NCBI GenBank assembly: GCA_051859245.1
Contig: JBHYGA010000001.1
Span: forward strand, 352,001 to 416,000
Direction of reading: 5' to 3'
Length of the DNA stretch: 64,000 bases
Source of the DNA: Gemmatimonadaceae bacterium
GTDB lineage: Bacteria > Gemmatimonadota > Gemmatimonadetes > Gemmatimonadales > Gemmatimonadaceae
Shown in pieces: positions 3,473 through 25,831 of this stretch; the stretch's first letter is position 1, and the number at the start of each line of letters is the position of its first letter. The translations under genes were made by a program, and so were the position numbers. The notes beneath the pieces were generated by a model. It worked only from the letters and a program-made list of their open reading frames with translations. It was not told the origin of the DNA and did no database searches.

Positions 3473-5424
3473 GGCGCGGTCTCGGTGAGAATTTGAATGA
3501 GTGATTGGCTTTGCCGCAGACGCTGCATTCTGGTCTCAGCGCCGAACGCCGTGAGAAATCGTGGGGTAATTCGTGGTGGTCGCAAATATTCGCGCCACCG
3601 CAGCTCCTGAACCGCTGGCACATCGGCAAGCGCGAGTTTTCCCAGCAACAAGGGTTCGAGTTCGCCGCCAGCGCGCAGATACGAGAGAAACTCCTGCAAC
3701 CCTCGCAGGTAAATCAGATCCTTGGTGAGTCCACCGCTGCGGTACACGCGCATGCAGATGGTGAACGCCGTGTTTGGCGCGAAATCGTATTCGTTGGTGA
3801 GCAGACGGTAGCAGTCAACAAACGGTGCGCCGTCCACGAGCGCACGTACGGCAATCACTCGTCCGGCCAGCACGCGAACGCGACTACCGGTGAGCGCACC
3901 GGTCAGATACTCCGACGTCACGGCGAGCCCTTCCTGCGTTTCTTCGTAGCCGGCCAACCCGCTCGCAAGCTGGCTCAGCGGCTGGGCAAGTCCGTTCGAG
4001 TAGGTGACCACGTGCGTGCCAATCTCATGCTGCACAAGCGCTCGCGCACGCGTTGGTGTAACGCGCAGTGAATGTCCAATCAGCAAGTCACCCTCAGACA
4101 CGAGTACGCCGGCCACATCGGTGCGAATGTGCACCCTGGCGTTCAGTCCGGCGTATACGCTTCGGTAGTGCGATAGCTCGTCTTCGGCCATCGCGGCAAA
4201 CCCCGTTGCGGTGACCACACCTTCCGTATCCGGCGCGTCATCGTCGTCATCGTCCGCACTCGTTCGCTCGGAAACGCGAAGCAGCGTGACCGCTAACTCG
4301 TGTAATGCGTCACTGACCTCGCCGTACACGGAAAGACTACCATACATAAATCGCGACGTGTTGCGGTCGCCCAGCATCGTGAGCTTCCGCGAGAGTTCAC
4401 CGCGACACGCTGACAAGAGATTGGCAAGCGTGGGGTCCTCAAGCTGCTCCAACGGAAGATTGTACAGTCGACGTTTGAGCGAGGCGACGTCAACGATGAG
4501 CGGTCGATAGTCAAACTCCGGATCGCGATCTGCTCCATCGCGCATGAACTGCGCACGCGCACGGTCGGCGTTCACCGGTGTGACTTGCAGCAGGAAGTCG
4601 AATGATCGCGAGATCTGTGTGAGCGCTGCATCGGCTTCTTGCACCGCACGCACCGCGGTGCGACGACCCAGTGCGTGAAAGTGCGACGGCTCGAGCGCCG
4701 TATGCAGTTGCACGAAGTGATACGCCGTTTGCCGAATGGCCAGCGACATGCCGCGCCGGAGCGTCTCGAACAACACCGGGTACGGTGTGCCGGTGCGCGC
4801 CTGCCGATACACGGGTTGCACTTCGATGCCAATCGCGGTGCAGCCACCGGTATGCTGTCGAACACACGTCAGGAGCTCACCCAGCGTGGGCGGAGACGGT
4901 GATCCGTGTGTGTCCACTTCAACGTCCAGCGGTGGTGGCCGCAGCGGTATGTTGCTGAGTGCCTTCCGCAATGCGCGTACGGTTGGATCGTCGGCCGGCA
5001 ACACGGGCGACACGATCCGAAATGTGGGGTCTGGTACTTTGCGCGCCGCGTCCACACCTTCGCGTCTTGTTTCGGCCGTCCATACTTCGAGCAGCAGAAA
5101 CTCGCCGAACTTCTCCACCATCACGTCGGCGATGGCGCTCACCAGTTGCTGAAGTCGAGCATGAAGCTCCAGGCTGCCTGGTGCAATCAGGTGGGAGGCC
5201 TCACCGATGATCATCTGCGACGTCGGGCCCACGGTATCCTGCGCCGGCTCGCGATACACACACAGAAATGGCAACGCGCGGTCAATGTGCAGTCGACCTC
5301 CTCCGGGGAGCGAACGACGCACACCATGCCCCTGTCGCAGCCGTTCACACACCTGCGCAATGAACGCCGGCGTGATACGCTGTCGCGCCGAAATCGAGTT
5401 GTTCGTGGTGGCGATGTCGGGCAT
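3469..5424 (-). CDS. QEGLA-motif (DUF1704, MATCAP-like) zinc metallopeptidase
   Basis: HEIGTH zincin-type motif followed by YEETQEGLA; RVYRSGGLTKDLIYLRG. Confidence 0.9.
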   Translation of the reverse strand: MPDIATTNNSISARQRITPAFIAQVCERLRQGHGVRRSLPGGGRLHIDRALPFLCVYREPAQDTVGPTSQMIIGEASHLIAPGSLELHARLQQLVSAIADVMVEKFGEFLLLEVWTAETRREGVDAARKVPDPTFRIVSPVLPADDPTVRALRKALSNIPLRPPPLDVEVDTHGSPSPPTLGELLTCVRQHTGGCTAIGIEVQPVYRQARTGTPYPVLFETLRRGMSLAIRQTAYHFVQLHTALEPSHFHALGRRTAVRAVQEADAALTQISRSFDFLLQVTPVNADRARAQFMRDGADRDPEFDYRPLIVDVASLKRRLYNLPLEQLEDPTLANLLSACRGELSRKLTMLGDRNTSRFMYGSLSVYGEVSDALHELAVTLLRVSERTSADDDDDDAPDTEGVVTATGFAAMAEDELSHYRSVYAGLNARVHIRTDVAGVLVSEGDLLIGHSLRVTPTRARALVQHEIGTHVVTYSNGLAQPLSQLASGLAGYEETQEGLAVTSEYLTGALTGSRVRVLAGRVIAVRALVDGAPFVDCYRLLTNEYDFAPNTAFTICMRVYRSGGLTKDLIYLRGLQEFLSYLRAGGELEPLLLGKLALADVPAVQELRWREYLRPPRITPRFLTAFGAETRMQRLRQSQSLIQILTETAP

Positions 5425-19727: not shown

Positions 19728-20360
19728 TCAGCGCATCAGCCCGTGAGCCACCACGTAGCGAACGAGCTCGGCGTTCGATGTGGCAGGTAGTTTCTCCAGC
19801 AGTCGCATGCGATACGTGCTGACCGTTTTTACACTCAGCGACAGCACGGCTGCGATTTCCGTGACGGAACGTCCGGAACCGAGCAGGCACAACACTTCAA
19901 ACTCACGATCGCTCAGGCGTTCGTGTGGCAATCCCTGCGTGCCCGCGCTCAACTCGGCGGCCAATCGTTCCGCGAGAGTCGCGCTCACGTATCGACCACC
20001 CGCGTGCACTTTTCGGACGGCCGCAACCAGTTCGCCCGGCGAATGATCCTTCGTGAGGTATCCGCGGGCGCCAGCACGCAGCGCGCGCGTCGCGTACTGC
20101 TCTTCCGAGTGCACGCTGAGTACGAGCACGCCAATCGTGGGATGCATTTCGCGCAGCGCTTCCAGCAGTGGTACGAGCCCTGGTCCGGGCATTGAGACAT
20201 CCAGCAGCAATACATCGGTCGGTACTTTGCGAAGGCGCTCCACCAGATCAACACCACTGGTCGCTTCTCCAACAACCACCATATCGCCTTCGTCCGCCAC
20301 GATGCCGATGAGTCCGGCGCGAACGATCGGATGATCGTCGGCAATGAACAGACGCATCAT
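19728..20360 (-). CDS. NarL/LuxR family response regulator
   Basis: IADDH, LLDVSMP, GYLTK, LSDREFEV...KTVSTYR. Confidence 0.95.
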   Translation of the reverse strand: MMRLFIADDHPIVRAGLIGIVADEGDMVVVGEATSGVDLVERLRKVPTDVLLLDVSMPGPGLVPLLEALREMHPTIGVLVLSVHSEEQYATRALRAGARGYLTKDHSPGELVAAVRKVHAGGRYVSATLAERLAAELSAGTQGLPHERLSDREFEVLCLLGSGRSVTEIAAVLSLSVKTVSTYRMRLLEKLPATSNAELVRYVVAHGLMR

Positions 20361-21904
20361 GGACGTGCACCAACGGGGGGAATGACAAGCCGTACCTGAG
20401 TACCACCAGTGGACAGACTGTCAATCGACAACGTGCCGCCAGCCGCAGCGGCACGTTCGTATTGGCCGAGCAGACCGAGCGAACACCGATCAGACAGCTC
20501 GGCCTCGGTGATGCCGCGTCCGTCATCGCTGATCACCACAACAACCTGCGTGTCGTCGGCTTGCATTGAAACATGCACCGTACGTGCCCCCGCATGCCGC
20601 GCTACGTTGGTGAGCGCCTCCTGCACAATGCGAAACACCGTCGTGCGCGCGTTGCTGTCGAGCGGGGGATCCGTTGCCGGCAAATCCACAGCCACACGCA
20701 CGTTCGACATGCGTGCAAATCGCTGTGCCTGCCACTCCAGCGCCGCGACGATGCCGAGATCGTCCAGCACGGCGGGACGCAACTCCGTGGCGATGCGGCG
20801 CACCACGTTCATGGCGCCCGCAATCCGCTCGAGCGCGTCCGCGACACGCTCACGAGCTGGCGCAGCATCGAGCGGCAAGTGAGCGTGCGTCCACGCAAGA
20901 TCCAGCTTGACGCCCGTGAGCAACTGTCCGAGTTCATCGTGAATCTCCCGCGAAATGGCGCGCCTTTCCTCTTCGCGGACGTGCTGCTGTCGACTGGCCA
21001 GTGCACGCAACTGCTGTCGTGAGGCCTCTACTTCCGCTTCGGCCAATCGTCGATCTGTGACATCATGCGCGATGGTCAGTACGCACATGGTGCCTTGCAG
21101 TTCAATGAGTGTTGACGACAACTGCGTGATCTCACGACGGCCATCCCGCGTATAACCCGCGAACTCGAGATCGACCACGGTGCCCTCGCGACGCAAGCGT
21201 TCGATGTATCGCTCGCGCGCGGCGGGTTCCTGCCACAGCCCGAGTTCCACCGACGTGCGACCGATGACCTCTTCCCTGGTGCGCCGAAGATCGCGCAGGA
21301 ACGCGTCGTTCACTTCCACGAATCGGCCATCGTCAAGTCGATTAATCGTGAGGCGAAAGGGCGAGAGCCGGAACGCCGCTTCGTAACGGGCTTCGGAATC
21401 ACGCAGCGCACGTTCCGCCTGATATCGCTCGGTCACATCGCGCTGTACGCCGAAATGTCCGGCAATGCGACCGTCCGGCGTGTAGAGGCACATGTACTCG
21501 CCGTCAATGCGCACTGGCGCGCCATCTTCACGGCGTTCGTCGGTTTCGTAACGCGCCTGTCCGTTGTCGAAGAACTCCGCCCACATGCGACGTCCCTCGG
21601 CAATGTCGTGTGCGTAGAAGTCAGCCGGCGTCCGTCCGAGAAATGAATCACGGGTCGCTTGATATTGCTGTAACATCGCGTCATTCACACGTGTGATTCG
21701 CTGGTGAGCAAACGCGTAGTCGAGCAGCGCTTCGCGGTTTGACTCACTGTGGTTCCAGGGGATGGGCGTATCGAGCATCATGAAGAACGCGCCCGTCAGC
21801 GATTGACTGAAGAACAGTTCGAGCAGGTCACGATCTGCCAGTGACGCTCCACCCGCGATCTCGGTCATCACCAGGCTCCAGGGCGTGAGGACTTGGGAGG
21901 CCAC
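20357..21904 (-). CDS. Soluble PAS-PAS sensor histidine kinase (HisKA_3)
   Basis: Two PAS/PAC repeats (QRDVTER, AHDVTDR); ISREIHDELGQ H-box; QEALTNVARHA; DDGRG; no TM. Confidence 0.92.
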   Translation of the reverse strand: MASQVLTPWSLVMTEIAGGASLADRDLLELFFSQSLTGAFFMMLDTPIPWNHSESNREALLDYAFAHQRITRVNDAMLQQYQATRDSFLGRTPADFYAHDIAEGRRMWAEFFDNGQARYETDERREDGAPVRIDGEYMCLYTPDGRIAGHFGVQRDVTERYQAERALRDSEARYEAAFRLSPFRLTINRLDDGRFVEVNDAFLRDLRRTREEVIGRTSVELGLWQEPAARERYIERLRREGTVVDLEFAGYTRDGRREITQLSSTLIELQGTMCVLTIAHDVTDRRLAEAEVEASRQQLRALASRQQHVREEERRAISREIHDELGQLLTGVKLDLAWTHAHLPLDAAPARERVADALERIAGAMNVVRRIATELRPAVLDDLGIVAALEWQAQRFARMSNVRVAVDLPATDPPLDSNARTTVFRIVQEALTNVARHAGARTVHVSMQADDTQVVVVISDDGRGITEAELSDRCSLGLLGQYERAAAAGGTLSIDSLSTGGTQVRLVIPPVGARP

Positions 21905-22083
21905 GGCACGAACCGCTCGCGCCCGCGACCGTCAATAATCGGCTCTCGTGAATCACTCCACGCAAGGGAGGATAGACCGGCCGGTTCGCGGATGGCATCG
22001 GTGCAAACCGCGGGTGCGTGCGGGACGATTAGACGCACGGCTGTCAGCGTGTGTCCGACGGCGAACGCGAGCGGCATGGCGGG

Positions 22084-23991
22084 CTAATGCACCACGACGG
22101 GGATTGCGCCACGCTGCCGGAGCGCTGGCGGCATCTCCGACATGGAGTGGTGTAGCAGGTACGTTCCACGGTGCCTGAGCGTAAACTCGACGTCGTGAAT
22201 TTCTCCCGGGCCGAACAGCACGCGCGCCGGTCCCGCCACGCGCTGCCGCTGCGGTAGGTGGGCGCCGTCCTTTGCCACCGGCGTCCATGTCGCCGGAAAC
22301 ACGAACTGCATCAGCGACACATTGAGAGTGTAGTCCGTGCGGATATTGATGAGACGCAGTCGGTATGTAACGCCCACTGAAAGGTGCAGTGTATCGGCGC
22401 TCAATTTGCCGTTCACTCGCGTCGCAGGAAACGGACCGCTGATCAGATTGCCGGTCGGGCCGTCGTCGCTGAAGAGCAGGACGCGATCCGTCTCTGGTGA
22501 CCAGCGTTCTGTTGAATCGAGCACGATGATCGCTCCGTGCAGCCCGGATGATATCTGCCCGATCTCGTTGAAGTGCGAGTGATACATGAACGTGCCGGCT
22601 CGTGTTGGCGTGAAGCGCACGGTCAGCGAATCGCCGGTCGCGATTGCCGGCAGTACAGTGTTGCCTTCGCCACTAAATCCCGGCACACCATCGGGAAAGC
22701 TCTCGAGCTCAATGCCATGCCAGTGCACGGCGGCCGGCTCGTGTGACCGGTTCACGATCCTGACTGCGACCGGCTCATTCCGTGTGAGCACGAGCGTTGG
22801 CCCATTCGCGGTGAAATCACGACCGGCGGCAGTGCTGTCGTCTCCGAAACGATAGCGGTATCCCGGTTGCGCACCGAACACGTTTGGGTGCGAATCGATG
22901 AGCAGTCGAAGCGGGCGATGGGTCGCGGGAGGCTCCGGTGTAGTACCACGAGGCGCCACGTAGATGCCCATCACCATGCCGGCCATCGCGTGCGAATGTG
23001 CACTATGCCCTGATGCCGCTGACGCAACACCGCGCGTTGTGCTGAGCGAGGCGATATGCGACATGTGTGTTGCCACATGGCAATGCAGCAGCCAGTTGCC
23101 GGGGCGCGACGGAGACCAGGTGAACTCCATCGTGCCCCCTGCAGACATGAGCTCGGTCACCGCCTGGCGTTGATCTTGCGCGGCGTACGTGGTGTATCGC
23201 GAGCCATCGCCAACGCCGTCCACACGAAAATAGAAGCCATGCAGATGCATGGGATGGTTCAGAATCGTCATGTTGATCCACCGCCAACGCAGCGAATCGC
23301 CCTGCGCTACATGCAGGGGCTCGGTGTGTGGCCATGACTGGCCGTTAATCGCGATGGTAAGTCGCTCCACCCCGGTCGTACTCGTCGCGTCCAGTTTGTA
23401 CCACCACGAAATCAGGAACACGCGATCGTCTCGCACGACAGCATCCGAACCATCGATGACGATCGCACCGTTGAGCTGACTGTCTTCATCACCACGCGTC
23501 AACCACTGTGCTCGTGAGGTCTTGCCAGCGTAGTAAAAGGTCCCGGGCGCCGTTGCGTAAAATGCGAACGTATGCCGTGCGCCCGGCGCAATGCTCACGC
23601 TATCTGCTGCGAGTCCAAGAGTGCTGCCGAGACCACGCAGCGTAAGGGCTTTCGCGAGCTGATTATGCACCACCACCACCACACGCATGCCTTGGCGCGC
23701 GCGAATCACGGGTCCGGGATTCTGCAGTGTCTTACCTACCTCGGCGAACGCGGCCACGTCCAGACCGAGTCCGCTTCGACTTTCGGGATGCCAACGTCCC
23801 ATTCGCGTTTCCAACTCGACGAACAACGTGTCGCCACGAATGACACCCGCCGTCACGCGGTTGTCATTGGGCGAGACATCGCTCACAACGTGCCGCAGGG
23901 TGTCACGTGCAGGTTCTGCATGTGTTGTTGTCGCGGCGACCATCAAGGCAGCGCCTGCTCCAACCGAGCACATCAATATCACTTTGCGCAT
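22084..23991 (-). CDS. Secreted multicopper oxidase, four cupredoxin domains
   Basis: HPMHLHG, WLLHCHVATH, VHWHG, FMYHSH copper motifs; signal peptide. Confidence 0.88.
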   Translation of the reverse strand: MRKVILMCSVGAGAALMVAATTTHAEPARDTLRHVVSDVSPNDNRVTAGVIRGDTLFVELETRMGRWHPESRSGLGLDVAAFAEVGKTLQNPGPVIRARQGMRVVVVVHNQLAKALTLRGLGSTLGLAADSVSIAPGARHTFAFYATAPGTFYYAGKTSRAQWLTRGDEDSQLNGAIVIDGSDAVVRDDRVFLISWWYKLDATSTTGVERLTIAINGQSWPHTEPLHVAQGDSLRWRWINMTILNHPMHLHGFYFRVDGVGDGSRYTTYAAQDQRQAVTELMSAGGTMEFTWSPSRPGNWLLHCHVATHMSHIASLSTTRGVASAASGHSAHSHAMAGMVMGIYVAPRGTTPEPPATHRPLRLLIDSHPNVFGAQPGYRYRFGDDSTAAGRDFTANGPTLVLTRNEPVAVRIVNRSHEPAAVHWHGIELESFPDGVPGFSGEGNTVLPAIATGDSLTVRFTPTRAGTFMYHSHFNEIGQISSGLHGAIIVLDSTERWSPETDRVLLFSDDGPTGNLISGPFPATRVNGKLSADTLHLSVGVTYRLRLINIRTDYTLNVSLMQFVFPATWTPVAKDGAHLPQRQRVAGPARVLFGPGEIHDVEFTLRHRGTYLLHHSMSEMPPALRQRGAIPVVVH

Positions 23992-24249
23992 ACGTCTCTC
24001 TGCAATGCTGATTCGGACAGAACATCAGGATGAGCCGATATGCTAGCGACGCCGCACTCCCGAATGGCGTGACTTCCGGAACGTCCTACAGAGATTGTTA
24101 TTGGGCGCTGGCACACGGACGATCGGACCGGTGCGCACGCTGCGTGAAGCAGTTGGCGCAGGCACGCGCGAACGTGTCGCGGCGCGCAGGGTGACAGCGC
24201 GCACGTACACAATGCGCGCTTTCGTCACACTCAACATGTAACTCCCCCC

Positions 24250-24268
24250 GGGGCTTGCCACAAGCGGG
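24250..24268. promoter_or_regulatory. RAE-like inverted repeat GGGGCTTGCCACAAGCGGG
   Basis: GCTTG-N3-CAAGC core, flanked by C6 (24244-49) and G7 (24266-72), 57 bp before the ATG of a Rox-like gene; resembles the remembered RAE consensus. Confidence 0.6.
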
Positions 24269-24325
24269 GGGGCAGGTGACATCATCGGCGGCTCGCCGCA
24301 ACAGCCCATTTCTTCGGAGGACAAC

Positions 24326-25831
24326 ATGGACGAGTCGCTCAACACACGTTCGTTACACAACATGCAACACGCGGTGGTGGTCGTTGGTGCAGGACCAACC
24401 GGACTGATGCTGGCTGGTGAGCTCGCATTAGCCGGCGTCGACGTGGTCATCATCGAACGTCGGGGAAACCAGCAGCTGATGGGAGCACGTGCTGGCGGGT
24501 TGCATGCACGCACCATCGAAGTGTTTGATCAGCGTGGCATTGCAGATCGGTTTCTCGCCGACGCCATGAAGTATCCCTCCGTTGGCTTTGCGGGCGTCTC
24601 ACTCGATATCAGTGATTTCCCGACGCGCCACCACTATCTGCTTGCACTCTGGCAAACACACATCGAACGGATTCTTGCGGCGTGGGTCGGCGAACTGCGT
24701 GTTCCCATTCACTACGGCGTGGCGGTCGACACTTTTACGCAGCACGACACGCATGTGGAGATCGGCCTCACGGCCGGTCAACGCGTATCAGCGCAGTTTC
24801 TGGTGGGATGCGACGGCGGCCGCAGTACGGTGCGAAACGTCGCCGGCATCGAGTTTGTCGGCACGGATCCGACAACCAGCAATCTCATCGCCGAGGCACA
24901 GCTCATGAGTGAACCGACGGCGTGGGGAATTCGTCGAGACGCGGTGGGCATTCACTCATTGAGCAAGAAAGATGACGGCCGAACGGTGCGCGTGCTTGTG
25001 ACTGAACAGAATGCCGGTGCTACGTCGGAGCCAACAATGCGCGAGCTGAGCGATGCGCTCATCGCCGTGTACGGAACGGACTACGGTATTCATTCTCCCA
25101 CGTGGCTGTCGCGTTTCACGGATGCCACACGACAGGCCATTCGTTATCGGGACCGACGTGTGCTTCTCGCAGGTGACGCGGCGCACATACATCCACCCGA
25201 CGGCGGACACGGTTTACAAACCGGTGTCCAGGACGCGGTTAACCTCGGCTGGAAGTTGGCGCAGGTTGTGAAGGGAATCTCGCCCGACACCTTGCTCGAT
25301 TCGTACCACGAAGAGCGTCATCCGATTGGGGCGCGCGTCCTGCAGAATACGATGGCGTCTGTGGTGCTCCGACGCGCCGACGACCGGACACAAGCGCTGC
25401 GAGACACAATCACAGAGCTGCTCGCGTTCGATGAGCCGCGAAAGCACGTTGCGGCGCTGATGTCTGGCCTCGATGTGCGCTATAACCTTGGTGACGGACA
25501 CGAACTGCTCGGTCGACGTATGCCCGATCTTGACATCGTCACCGCTCATGGACCGCAGCGCGTGTTCACGCTGCTGCACGCGGCGAAGCCGCTGGTGTTC
25601 AACTTTGGCCAACTGCCGAGCATCGATATCACGCCGTGGCGTGATCGCGTAATGATCGTGGATGCGGAATACCACGGTGTGTGGGAACTACCGGCCATCG
25701 GCGCGGTGCGGGCGCCAACTGCCGTCCTGGTTCGGCCAGACGGATACGTTGCATGGGTGGGCGACGCCACGCGGCGTGGTCTGTCAGAGGCGCTCACGCT
25801 CTGGTTCGGACCAGCAGCGGTAATCGATTGA
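24326..25831 (+). CDS. FAD-dependent monooxygenase, rifampicin monooxygenase (Rox)-like
   Basis: GAGPTGLMLAGEL, GLHARTIEVFDQRG, VGCDGGRSTVR, WLSRFTDATRQA.RYR..RVLLAGDAAHIHPP.GG.G, RYNLGDGHELLGRRM, AVLVRPDGYVAW; RBS GGAGG. Confidence 0.8.
   Translation: MDESLNTRSLHNMQHAVVVVGAGPTGLMLAGELALAGVDVVIIERRGNQQLMGARAGGLHARTIEVFDQRGIADRFLADAMKYPSVGFAGVSLDISDFPTRHHYLLALWQTHIERILAAWVGELRVPIHYGVAVDTFTQHDTHVEIGLTAGQRVSAQFLVGCDGGRSTVRNVAGIEFVGTDPTTSNLIAEAQLMSEPTAWGIRRDAVGIHSLSKKDDGRTVRVLVTEQNAGATSEPTMRELSDALIAVYGTDYGIHSPTWLSRFTDATRQAIRYRDRRVLLAGDAAHIHPPDGGHGLQTGVQDAVNLGWKLAQVVKGISPDTLLDSYHEERHPIGARVLQNTMASVVLRRADDRTQALRDTITELLAFDEPRKHVAALMSGLDVRYNLGDGHELLGRRMPDLDIVTAHGPQRVFTLLHAAKPLVFNFGQLPSIDITPWRDRVMIVDAEYHGVWELPAIGAVRAPTAVLVRPDGYVAWVGDATRRGLSEALTLWFGPAAVID

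Follow-up and report, generated by a model that had tools for sequence, protein, structure and literature searches.

Can the switch that places rifamycin-resistance genes of Actinobacteria under the control of the drug also stand before a gene in another phylum? The rifamycin-associated element (RAE) is an inverted repeat of about 19 bp, defined in Actinobacteria upstream of rifamycin-resistance genes, reportedly in 2014 by Spanogiannopoulos et al. The locus studied here lies in a stretch of 64,000 nt, referred to throughout as the window, from the genome of a soil-type Gemmatimonadaceae bacterium (assembly GCA_051859245.1, contig JBHYGA010000001.1, positions 352,001 to 416,000). The contig is 1.83 Mb long, and the genome (4.70 Mb in 11 contigs, 62% G+C) is 99.87% complete with a contamination of 2.2%. 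An original prediction, made from the sequence of the window, had placed an RAE-like element upstream of a flavin monooxygenase gene resembling rox, and had proposed that the RAE regulon extends to a second phylum. Having compared the locus with its relatives in three phyla, we think it probable that the window carries a horizontally spread resistance cassette, composed of an RAE-centred module of ~55 bp and a Rox-like monooxygenase of the PRK06834 subfamily.

RAEs have been placed upstream of rgt, rph, rox, arr and helR in Actinobacteria, where rifamycin induction requires the element (10.1101/2021.05.10.443488; 10.1101/2021.05.10.443476). A census over Actinobacteria and Firmicutes gives none in Firmicutes (10.1101/2021.05.10.443488), and a survey of 2026 is limited to Actinomycetota. 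We found no report of an RAE outside Actinobacteria in a limited literature search, which did not cover the defining paper of 2014 and the supplements.

Homology of the window element with the RAE module

The predicted 19-mer, GGGGCTTGCCACAAGCGGG, was located at 24250–24268 on the + strand, with 57 bp from its end to the ATG at 24326. It is flanked by CCCCCC at 24244–24249 and by a run of seven G residues at 24266–24272. As the papers show the RAE in figures only, a consensus was derived from genomes. The source was a set of 32 loci that score 754–925 bits on NF033145, the NCBIfam equivalog model for Rox (rif_monoox), 24 of them above the cut-off and eight just below; 30 were drawn from 101 genomes belonging to the same order as a Nocardia genome, and two were named loci. 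A site with at most one mismatch to GCTTG-N3-CAAG was present in the 350 bp upstream of 19 of the 32, and these sites were made into a 21-mer matrix; a further locus, L132, with two overlapping A+T-rich matches, was left out. The derived 21-mer consensus, GGGG-N-CTTGCGGCAAG-N-CCCG, agrees with the consensus given in the original prediction. In leave-one-out scoring, the 19 real sites received 6.6–32.8 bits, with a median of 29.7.

Aligned with this consensus, the window element is a degenerate 21-mer, CGGGGCTTGCCACAAGCGGGG, at 24249–24269 (strand undefined, dyad centre 24259). Its left arm and CTTG-N3-CAAG core are canonical, and G residues stand in place of the right-arm C-run at +7 and +8. 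There is no net indel, and the distance to the downstream hexamer described below is unchanged. The centre reads CCA, versus CGG in the canonical sites of relatives; CCA is also found upstream of the NF033145-type Rox genes L025 and L114. Among actinobacterial loci of the PRK06834 type, L217 (G733:C59:70752-75209) carries an RAE variant, CGGGGCTTGCGGCAACCGGGG, of 9.8 bits, whose right arm likewise ends in a G-run.

Scoring with a position-weight matrix, as had been proposed, gave a divided answer: with 12.4 bits the window element was ninth of 9.4 million genome positions, and the score itself lay in the low tail of the real sites. Scores of at least 12 bits occur at 14 of the 9.4 million positions, corresponding to ~0.001 sites expected per 410 nt upstream region on both strands. 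The full 19-mer at up to three mismatches occurs once in the window, versus 0.01 expected. Better-scoring sites at C1:3906 (20.5 bits), C1:1021379 and C4:191569 lie inside long open reading frames (ORFs) and were set aside as chance. The RAE stretch folded no better than shuffled sequences (z −1.0 and −1.4), and we make no case for an RNA hairpin at the element.

A dyad-centred alignment revealed blocks on both sides of the RAE that are common to actinobacterial Rox promoters and Gemmatimonadota loci. When the RAE 21-mer was masked and a flank-only matrix was built from 13 other Gemmatimonadota modules, the window scored 32.5 bits versus a leave-one-out median of 34.7 for the members, a score unmatched at any other of 9,395,324 genome positions. 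A matrix of the 61 bp module, from 21 canonical Gemmatimonadota modules, gave 30.9 bits for the window; the null for this value, the best score in each of 300 random 410 nt pieces of the genome, had a mean of −33.6, a standard deviation of 5.8 and a maximum of −15.0. The window locus was also the top position of the genome for a whole-module matrix of 15 actinobacterial Rox promoters. The flanks of the actinobacterial Rox promoters alone described the window poorly (−21.5 bits, with 475 positions equally good).

The most regular part of these flanks is a pair of hexamers. The comparison covered 49 canonical modules, of which Gemmatimonadota supplied 21, Rox loci 17 and actinobacterial PRK06834-type loci 11; NANNNT was found exactly at +21 to +26 from the dyad in all 49 and at the mirror position, −26 to −21, in 46, with other offsets nearly empty. 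The window has CATCAT at +21 to +26 (24280–24285, + strand) and AACATG at −26 to −21 (24233–24238), which reads CATGTT outward on the − strand; the strand of this left hexamer is not decidable from the sequence, as its conserved A and T fit either. The window RAE is the centre of a palindrome-like module of ~53–55 bp with two −10-like elements that face outward, and CATCAT is likely to be the −10 element of the promoter from which the monooxygenase gene is transcribed.

The flank-only and 61 bp module scores show the window element to be a homologue, by sequence comparison, of the module before rox, rph and rgt in Actinobacteria, as had been predicted, and we read it as a real but worn RAE module. 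It resembles the actinobacterial RAE in its CTTG-N3-CAAG core, its left G-run and its place 44–200 bp upstream of a gene of the rifamycin-resistance type, as well as in the left CAACAT(A/G)T... block and the −10-like hexamer at +21 to +26 that are found in 17 Rox promoters. It differs in its gemmatimonadotal host and in its right arm, where G for C at +7 and +8 leaves the 19 bp palindrome incomplete. At M. smegmatis helD, the RAE is described as overlapping the −35 element of a downstream sense promoter (PMC10719064); published work puts a second sense promoter upstream. The right −10-like element of the window fits this placement of the RAE over a downstream −35.

A subtype of the module was seen at the Gemmatimonadota loci L175, L013, L183, L184, L188, L194, L196 and L011. 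Here the distance from dyad to coding start is fixed at 55 nt, the leader …CTTCGCGC.CATT…GGAGTTGCGATGAC… is conserved, and the left block has a TATCA form that replaces CATATAGC.

A Rox-like monooxygenase of the PRK06834 subfamily

The gene downstream of the module (24326–25831, + strand) encodes a protein of 501 aa, identified from Pfam, NCBIfam and PDB matches as a class A flavin adenine dinucleotide (FAD) monooxygenase of the NCBIfam PRK06834 subfamily. Pfam detected FAD_binding_3 (PF01494; 5e-78) and Rng_hyd_C (1e-23), and the flavin motifs that define class A were found in the PDB alignment as GAGPTG (GxGxxG), GCDGGRS (DG) and LAGDAAH (GD). On NF005303, the model of PRK06834 ('hypothetical protein'), the protein scored 809.1 bits versus a cut-off of 625, with residues 13–498 aligned to positions 2–486 of the 488 in the profile. 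Its PDB matches were OxyS (4e-106), CabE (4e-103), RIFMO 5KOW (2e-102) and Rox 5VQB (4e-100).

All of the peptide motifs quoted in the original prediction are present in the translated ORF. The accompanying claim that they follow rifampicin monooxygenase closely did not survive: the protein scores below the cut-off of NF033145, falls in a separate clade and is equally close to OxyS and CabE. The same model gave only 453–490 bits for all 12 Gemmatimonadota monooxygenase loci and the three RAE-linked actinobacterial relatives that were scored. In a FastTree phylogeny of 139 rows, PRK06834-type proteins, NF033145-type Rox proteins and a third Nocardia clade were separate, each with 100% support and each RAE-linked, so that the proposed comparison with characterised Rox enzymes places the window enzyme outside the Rox clade. 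The third clade of class A monooxygenases comprises L073, L083, L086 and L093 from Nocardia and L085 from Patulibacter, with an RAE of 30–33 bits upstream in the four Nocardia members. Among the 62 other aligned homologues outside the three RAE-linked clades, none had an RAE of at least 20 bits.

Like Rox of S. venezuelae (5VQB) and RIFMO of N. farcinica (5KOW/5KOX), the window enzyme is a class A FAD protein with a C-terminal Rng_hyd_C domain and the flavin motifs, aligns over its full length and is RAE-linked; unlike them, it has Gly for Arg201 and also differs at positions 43, 71, 74 and 93. OxyS (4K2X), CabE (2QA2) and PgaE (2QA1) share the fold family and match the sequence equally well or better, yet they are angucycline/tetracycline polyketide oxygenases that sit in biosynthetic clusters. 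A secondary source lists 14 residues as lining the rifampicin pocket of RIFMO (PMC11375879). Mapped by hand on to the window protein, four of the 14 are identical, four conservative and six different. Ten of the 14 were mapped reliably across families; the alignment-table rows for positions 256–341 are shifted by one residue and were used only where remapped by hand. The position of Arg201 is G in the window protein, and His occupies position 74 in 53 of the 62 other homologues, where the window enzyme has Gly. We regard the enzyme as Rox-like and outside the Rox equivalog family; its putative substrate is a rifamycin.

Spread of the module and its genes across phyla

The gene has a patchy distribution: five of 60 close relatives carry it, as do 33 of 401 sampled Gemmatimonadota genomes, including 23 of the 93 in the family of the window; for PRK06834-type genes the tally was 36 of 401 genomes in Actinomycetota and nine of 301 in Myxococcota. 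The actinomycetotal figure includes G927 and G660, which were left out of further analysis. Upstream of the 34 PRK06834-type loci of Gemmatimonadota, the RAE scored at least 20 bits at 19, 10–20 bits at nine (including the window) and less than 10 bits at six; four further Gemmatimonadota matches without a locus stand outside the 34. The corresponding numbers were 11, four and 12 at 27 loci in Actinomycetota, and five (all at least 22 bits), none and four at nine loci in Myxococcota. Conservation upstream of orthologues, which the original prediction had named as a check, was therefore found at 28 of the 34 Gemmatimonadota loci at a level of at least 10 bits. Among the six low loci, one gene lies behind an RAE-bearing Rgt-like gene and another has a decayed site at the same position. 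In Myxococcota, L231, L232, L233, L238 and L239, which include a Polyangium, carry an RAE of 22–30 bits and the same flanking blocks before the PRK06834-type gene.

PRK06834-type proteins are only ~60–70% identical among loci. At such protein divergence, neutral non-coding DNA would be randomized, and we conclude that selection maintains the module in these phyla; that it has been kept through 30–40% protein divergence also argues that it works in these hosts.

A 17-mer RAE pattern was present in 21 of the 401 Gemmatimonadota genomes, with one site each. Directly upstream of a resistance-type gene were 14 of the 21 sites: ten precede a flavin monooxygenase gene, one a monooxygenase remnant, one an operon of an Rgt-like gene followed by a monooxygenase gene, and two rph. 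The two rph loci, L161 (G420:C197:53092-56500) and L162 (G231:C9:17830-25846), scored 1557 and 1491 bits on NF041857 versus a cut-off of 999, and each has a canonical RAE directly upstream. At L135/L186 (G484:C7:19271-25019), a single RAE is followed by an Rgt-like glycosyltransferase gene (NF000354, 371 bits, below the cut-off of 800) and then by a PRK06834-type monooxygenase gene on the same strand, an arrangement that looks like a two-enzyme operon. The remnant is that of L164 (G476:C1:686222-694238), where ORF 3904–4611 downstream of the RAE encodes 235 aa of a monooxygenase with the Rng_hyd_C domain only. No HelR-type gene was found next to the 21 pattern sites; no search of the phylum was aimed at HelR. 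Several of the RAE-bearing Gemmatimonadota loci are on contigs of 3.7–5.3 Mb or in single-contig genomes, so that mis-binning cannot explain them. The predicted extension of the RAE regulon beyond Actinobacteria is borne out by these loci, with the module before monooxygenase orthologues, rph and an Rgt-like gene, and this comparative evidence gives Gemmatimonadota, as a phylum, an RAE regulon that spans three classes of enzyme.

In a 70-row IQ-TREE phylogeny rooted on Rox, all basal PRK06834 branches were actinobacterial, and the 34 Gemmatimonadota sequences lay in a crown group, interleaved with 11 actinobacterial ones. At least three changes of phylum are forced by well-supported branches, and parsimony needs seven. 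This tree came from a rapid search, with branch support from SH-aLRT alone and an outgroup of our choosing. The neighbours of the window gene, for a multicopper oxidase and a phosphoenolpyruvate (PEP) carboxylase, were absent within 1.5 kb at 34 other Gemmatimonadota monooxygenase loci. The lack of shared neighbours, together with the changes of phylum in the tree, points to repeated movement of the cassette with its control region attached. Taken alone, the window genome holds a single worn example of an already known type of cassette, and the comparative result is the more interesting one.

Alternative explanations for the locus

A number of observations weigh against reading the window locus as a working rifamycin-responsive cassette. 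The element is weak, at the low end of the real sites; it reaches 12.4 bits only when read against the direction of the gene, and 8.3 bits when read along it, and the palindrome loses its symmetry at +7 and +8. Small nhmmer models of the 21-mer, the 80 bp module, the left flank and the right flank were run over the genome, and gave 7.8 bits at the window locus, with genome-wide E-values of 33 (21-mer) and 11 (module). The published RAE census used the same type of tool with a model other than ours, and a 10-bit rule would not call the window site at this score. We preferred ungapped matrices because, in nhmmer models this short, local alignment costs most of the score. A simple scan of 24050–24400 for sigma-70 promoters and terminators found neither. 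The 17-mer pattern is no commoner in Gemmatimonadota than its reversed control; frequency alone proves nothing, and it is the association with genes that carries the argument. The nearest neighbour of the window protein in the tree, L010, is entirely without the module, and the sub-lineage of the window may be losing RAE control. The search for helR, rph and arr elsewhere in the genome that the original prediction had suggested was negative, with no rph, arr or HelD-type gene found to share the control. The enzyme, for its part, scored 443.8 bits on NF033145 versus a cut-off of 800, and its clade stands apart from Rox with 100% support in both FastTree and IQ-TREE. At the position of Arg201, 19 of 21 Rox proteins have R, and G is found in 33 of 34 PRK06834-type proteins from Gemmatimonadota and in all 30 from Actinobacteria; at position 74, 12 of the 21 Rox proteins have F, and 23 of the 34 and 20 of the 30 have G. 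A literature search of limited coverage yielded no assay of a PRK06834-type enzyme.

These points can be arranged into three other accounts of the locus. The cassette could have arrived with a working RAE that has since decayed, leaving the gene constitutive from the kept −10 element or silent, and not induced by rifamycin. To the low score relative to the median of 29.7 and the lost symmetry, this account can add that L010 and L186, the closest in the tree, have no RAE of their own, that loss is common (less than 10 bits at six of 34 Gemmatimonadota and 12 of 27 actinobacterial loci), and that removal of one half of the RAE abolished its function in M. abscessus (10.1101/2021.05.10.443476). 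We nonetheless consider it rather doubtful, given that the −10-like hexamers and flanks match those of canonical modules in their state of preservation (flank score 32.5 bits, median 34.7), that the CTTG-N3-CAAG core and the complete left arm are intact, that real NF033145-type sites go down to 6.6 and 10.8 bits in leave-one-out scoring, and that L217 has a similar right-arm G-run. A palindrome arisen by chance in G+C-rich intergenic DNA, with no relation to the RAE, is scarcely credible. The bare core GCTTG-N3-CAAGC is indeed at chance frequency, with eight copies in the 4.7 Mb genome versus eight for the reversed control; 14 genome positions reach 12 bits, three better ones lie inside long ORFs, and the nhmmer E-values are not significant. 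Against this, the flanks with the RAE masked single out the locus as the best of 9.4 million positions, the site is at a position homologous to that of the canonical RAEs of orthologues, and both −10-like hexamers stand at the exact conserved offsets. We regard the chance account as already refuted by the flank-only and 61 bp module scores, the conservation among orthologues and the hexamer offsets.

The remaining account concerns the enzyme, which might act on another aromatic polyketide or on another inhibitor of RNA polymerase, with the RAE reporting general transcription stress. The sub-threshold Rox score, the equal closeness of OxyS, CabE and PgaE, the absence of the Rox-typical Arg201 and the change at position 74 would all suit such a role. 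So would the RAE linkage of a third, unrelated Nocardia monooxygenase clade, by which the element is seen not to be bound to a single enzyme lineage, and the occurrence of RAEs before genes without a known resistance function (10.1101/2021.05.10.443488). In opposition to these points, the characterised RAE-linked enzyme classes all act on rifamycins (10.1101/2021.05.10.443488), the same module precedes bona fide rph in Gemmatimonadota, and in G484 an RAE precedes what looks like a joint operon of the monooxygenase and an Rgt-like glycosyltransferase. We judge a different substrate to be unlikely. A spread cassette of RAE module and Rox-like monooxygenase remains our preferred reading of the locus.

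A proposed mode of rifamycin sensing

Of the ways in which the cassette might respond to the drug, we think the following the most likely. Two outward promoters would compete for one shared −35 region. Rifamycin that partly inhibits RNA polymerase would shift the balance to the right-hand promoter (−10 at 24280–24285), and transcription of the gene would rise. The enzyme, with FAD, NAD(P)H and O2, would then hydroxylate and inactivate the drug, as Rox does. In the window genome the right-arm C-run has been lost, and induction may be weakened or lost, with the two −10-like elements remaining. For the window gene, induction by rifamycin is a prediction, as is rifamycin turnover by its enzyme.

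The occurrence of the module across phyla, with no linked regulator gene in the loci read, favours RNA polymerase as the sensor over an actinobacterial transcription factor, and we infer that sensing at a two-way promoter may be factor-free. It is possible that a transcription factor common to these phyla is the sensor. A precedent is provided by B. subtilis helD and pps, for which Sudzinova et al. (2026) describe a dual-promoter rifampicin alarm (PMC12802891). In that alarm, two promoters act in cis with no dedicated factor, and protective genes are up at sub-inhibitory rifampicin. It differs from the module proposed here in that its promoters converge and have no RAE palindrome (PMC12802891), whereas the two −10-like elements of the window, known from sequence, face away from the shared palindromic centre.

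We put forward a joint reading of these results tentatively, and hold it to be possible rather than probable. The RAE would be no operator for a regulator of Actinobacteria and instead the centre of a self-contained, symmetric two-way promoter at which RNA polymerase senses rifamycin; free of any need for a host-specific factor, the module would have travelled among Actinomycetota, Gemmatimonadota and Myxococcota with PRK06834-type monooxygenase, Rph and Rgt-like genes; and the PRK06834-type enzymes would be a second rifamycin-inactivating family, as common as Rox in soil bacteria.

Host genome and setting of the locus

The original prediction had taken the host to be a probable member of Gemmatimonadota, and the β subunit of RNA polymerase, RpoB, agrees. 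This protein is 76–85% identical over its full length to that of a named Gemmatimonadaceae metagenome-assembled genome (MAG), and 53–61% identical, in partial matches only, to those of Polyangium, Duganella, Bacillus and Conexibacter (Myxococcota, Pseudomonadota, Bacillota and Actinomycetota, respectively). PEP carboxylase was tried as a taxonomic marker and rejected, at 38–39% identity to full-length matches (Terrabacter, Polyangium and the Gemmatimonadaceae MAG) and 47% to a partial Streptomyces match, with one genome without a match. RpoB (L133, G000:C5:136268-142891) is unusually long, at 1517 aa; the Gemmatimonadaceae MAG matches it from end to end, and this suggests lineage-specific insertions. 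In its rifampicin-resistance region the protein is of the sensitive type: the three positions that we take to be the classical hot spots are occupied by Asp, His and Ser. With drug-sensitive residues in RpoB, the host would benefit from the inactivation of rifamycin.

The module lies in a divergent intergenic region (23992–24325) between the multicopper oxidase gene on the − strand and the monooxygenase ORF on the + strand, and the PEP carboxylase gene is the next after the monooxygenase ORF. A Shine–Dalgarno-like GGAGGA was read from the sequence at 24317–24322 (+ strand), 3 nt before the ATG. The monooxygenase gene has the same G+C content as its flanks (0.59–0.62), so that any transfer would not be recent. 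On the minus strand, 20357–23991 encodes a multicopper oxidase of 635 aa, whose cupredoxin domains are duplicated, and a sensor kinase of the PAS-PAS HisKA_3 type, and we saw no link of these two genes to the cassette.

Directly upstream of the module, a GC-rich stretch at 24186–24233 (strand undefined) can form a hairpin of −20 to −22 kcal/mol, with z-scores of −3.3 (+) and −3.65 (−) versus 200 dinucleotide shuffles. A comparable hairpin (z < −2) accompanies only ten of 17 Rox, three of 11 actinobacterial and five of 21 Gemmatimonadota modules, and so does not belong to the module as a constant element. In many actinobacterial Rox promoters, if not universally, a hairpin at the same place is followed by a T-run on the opposite strand. 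The hairpin at 24186–24233 is possibly an insulator or terminator for leftward transcription.

Significance for rifamycin resistance

A review of 2022 and a paper of 2026 still leave the sensing of rifamycins by the RAE, a question since 2014, without a mechanism, and posit a transcription factor yet to be identified. Selected, intact RAE modules in Gemmatimonadota and Myxococcota, before three enzyme types and with no linked regulator in the loci read, narrow the search for the sensor, which would be either common to distant phyla or RNA polymerase itself. Judged from these sequence comparisons, the RAE switch is not confined to actinomycetes. The PRK06834 family, present in ~8–9% of the sampled Gemmatimonadota and Actinomycetota genomes, may belong to the environmental rifamycin resistome.

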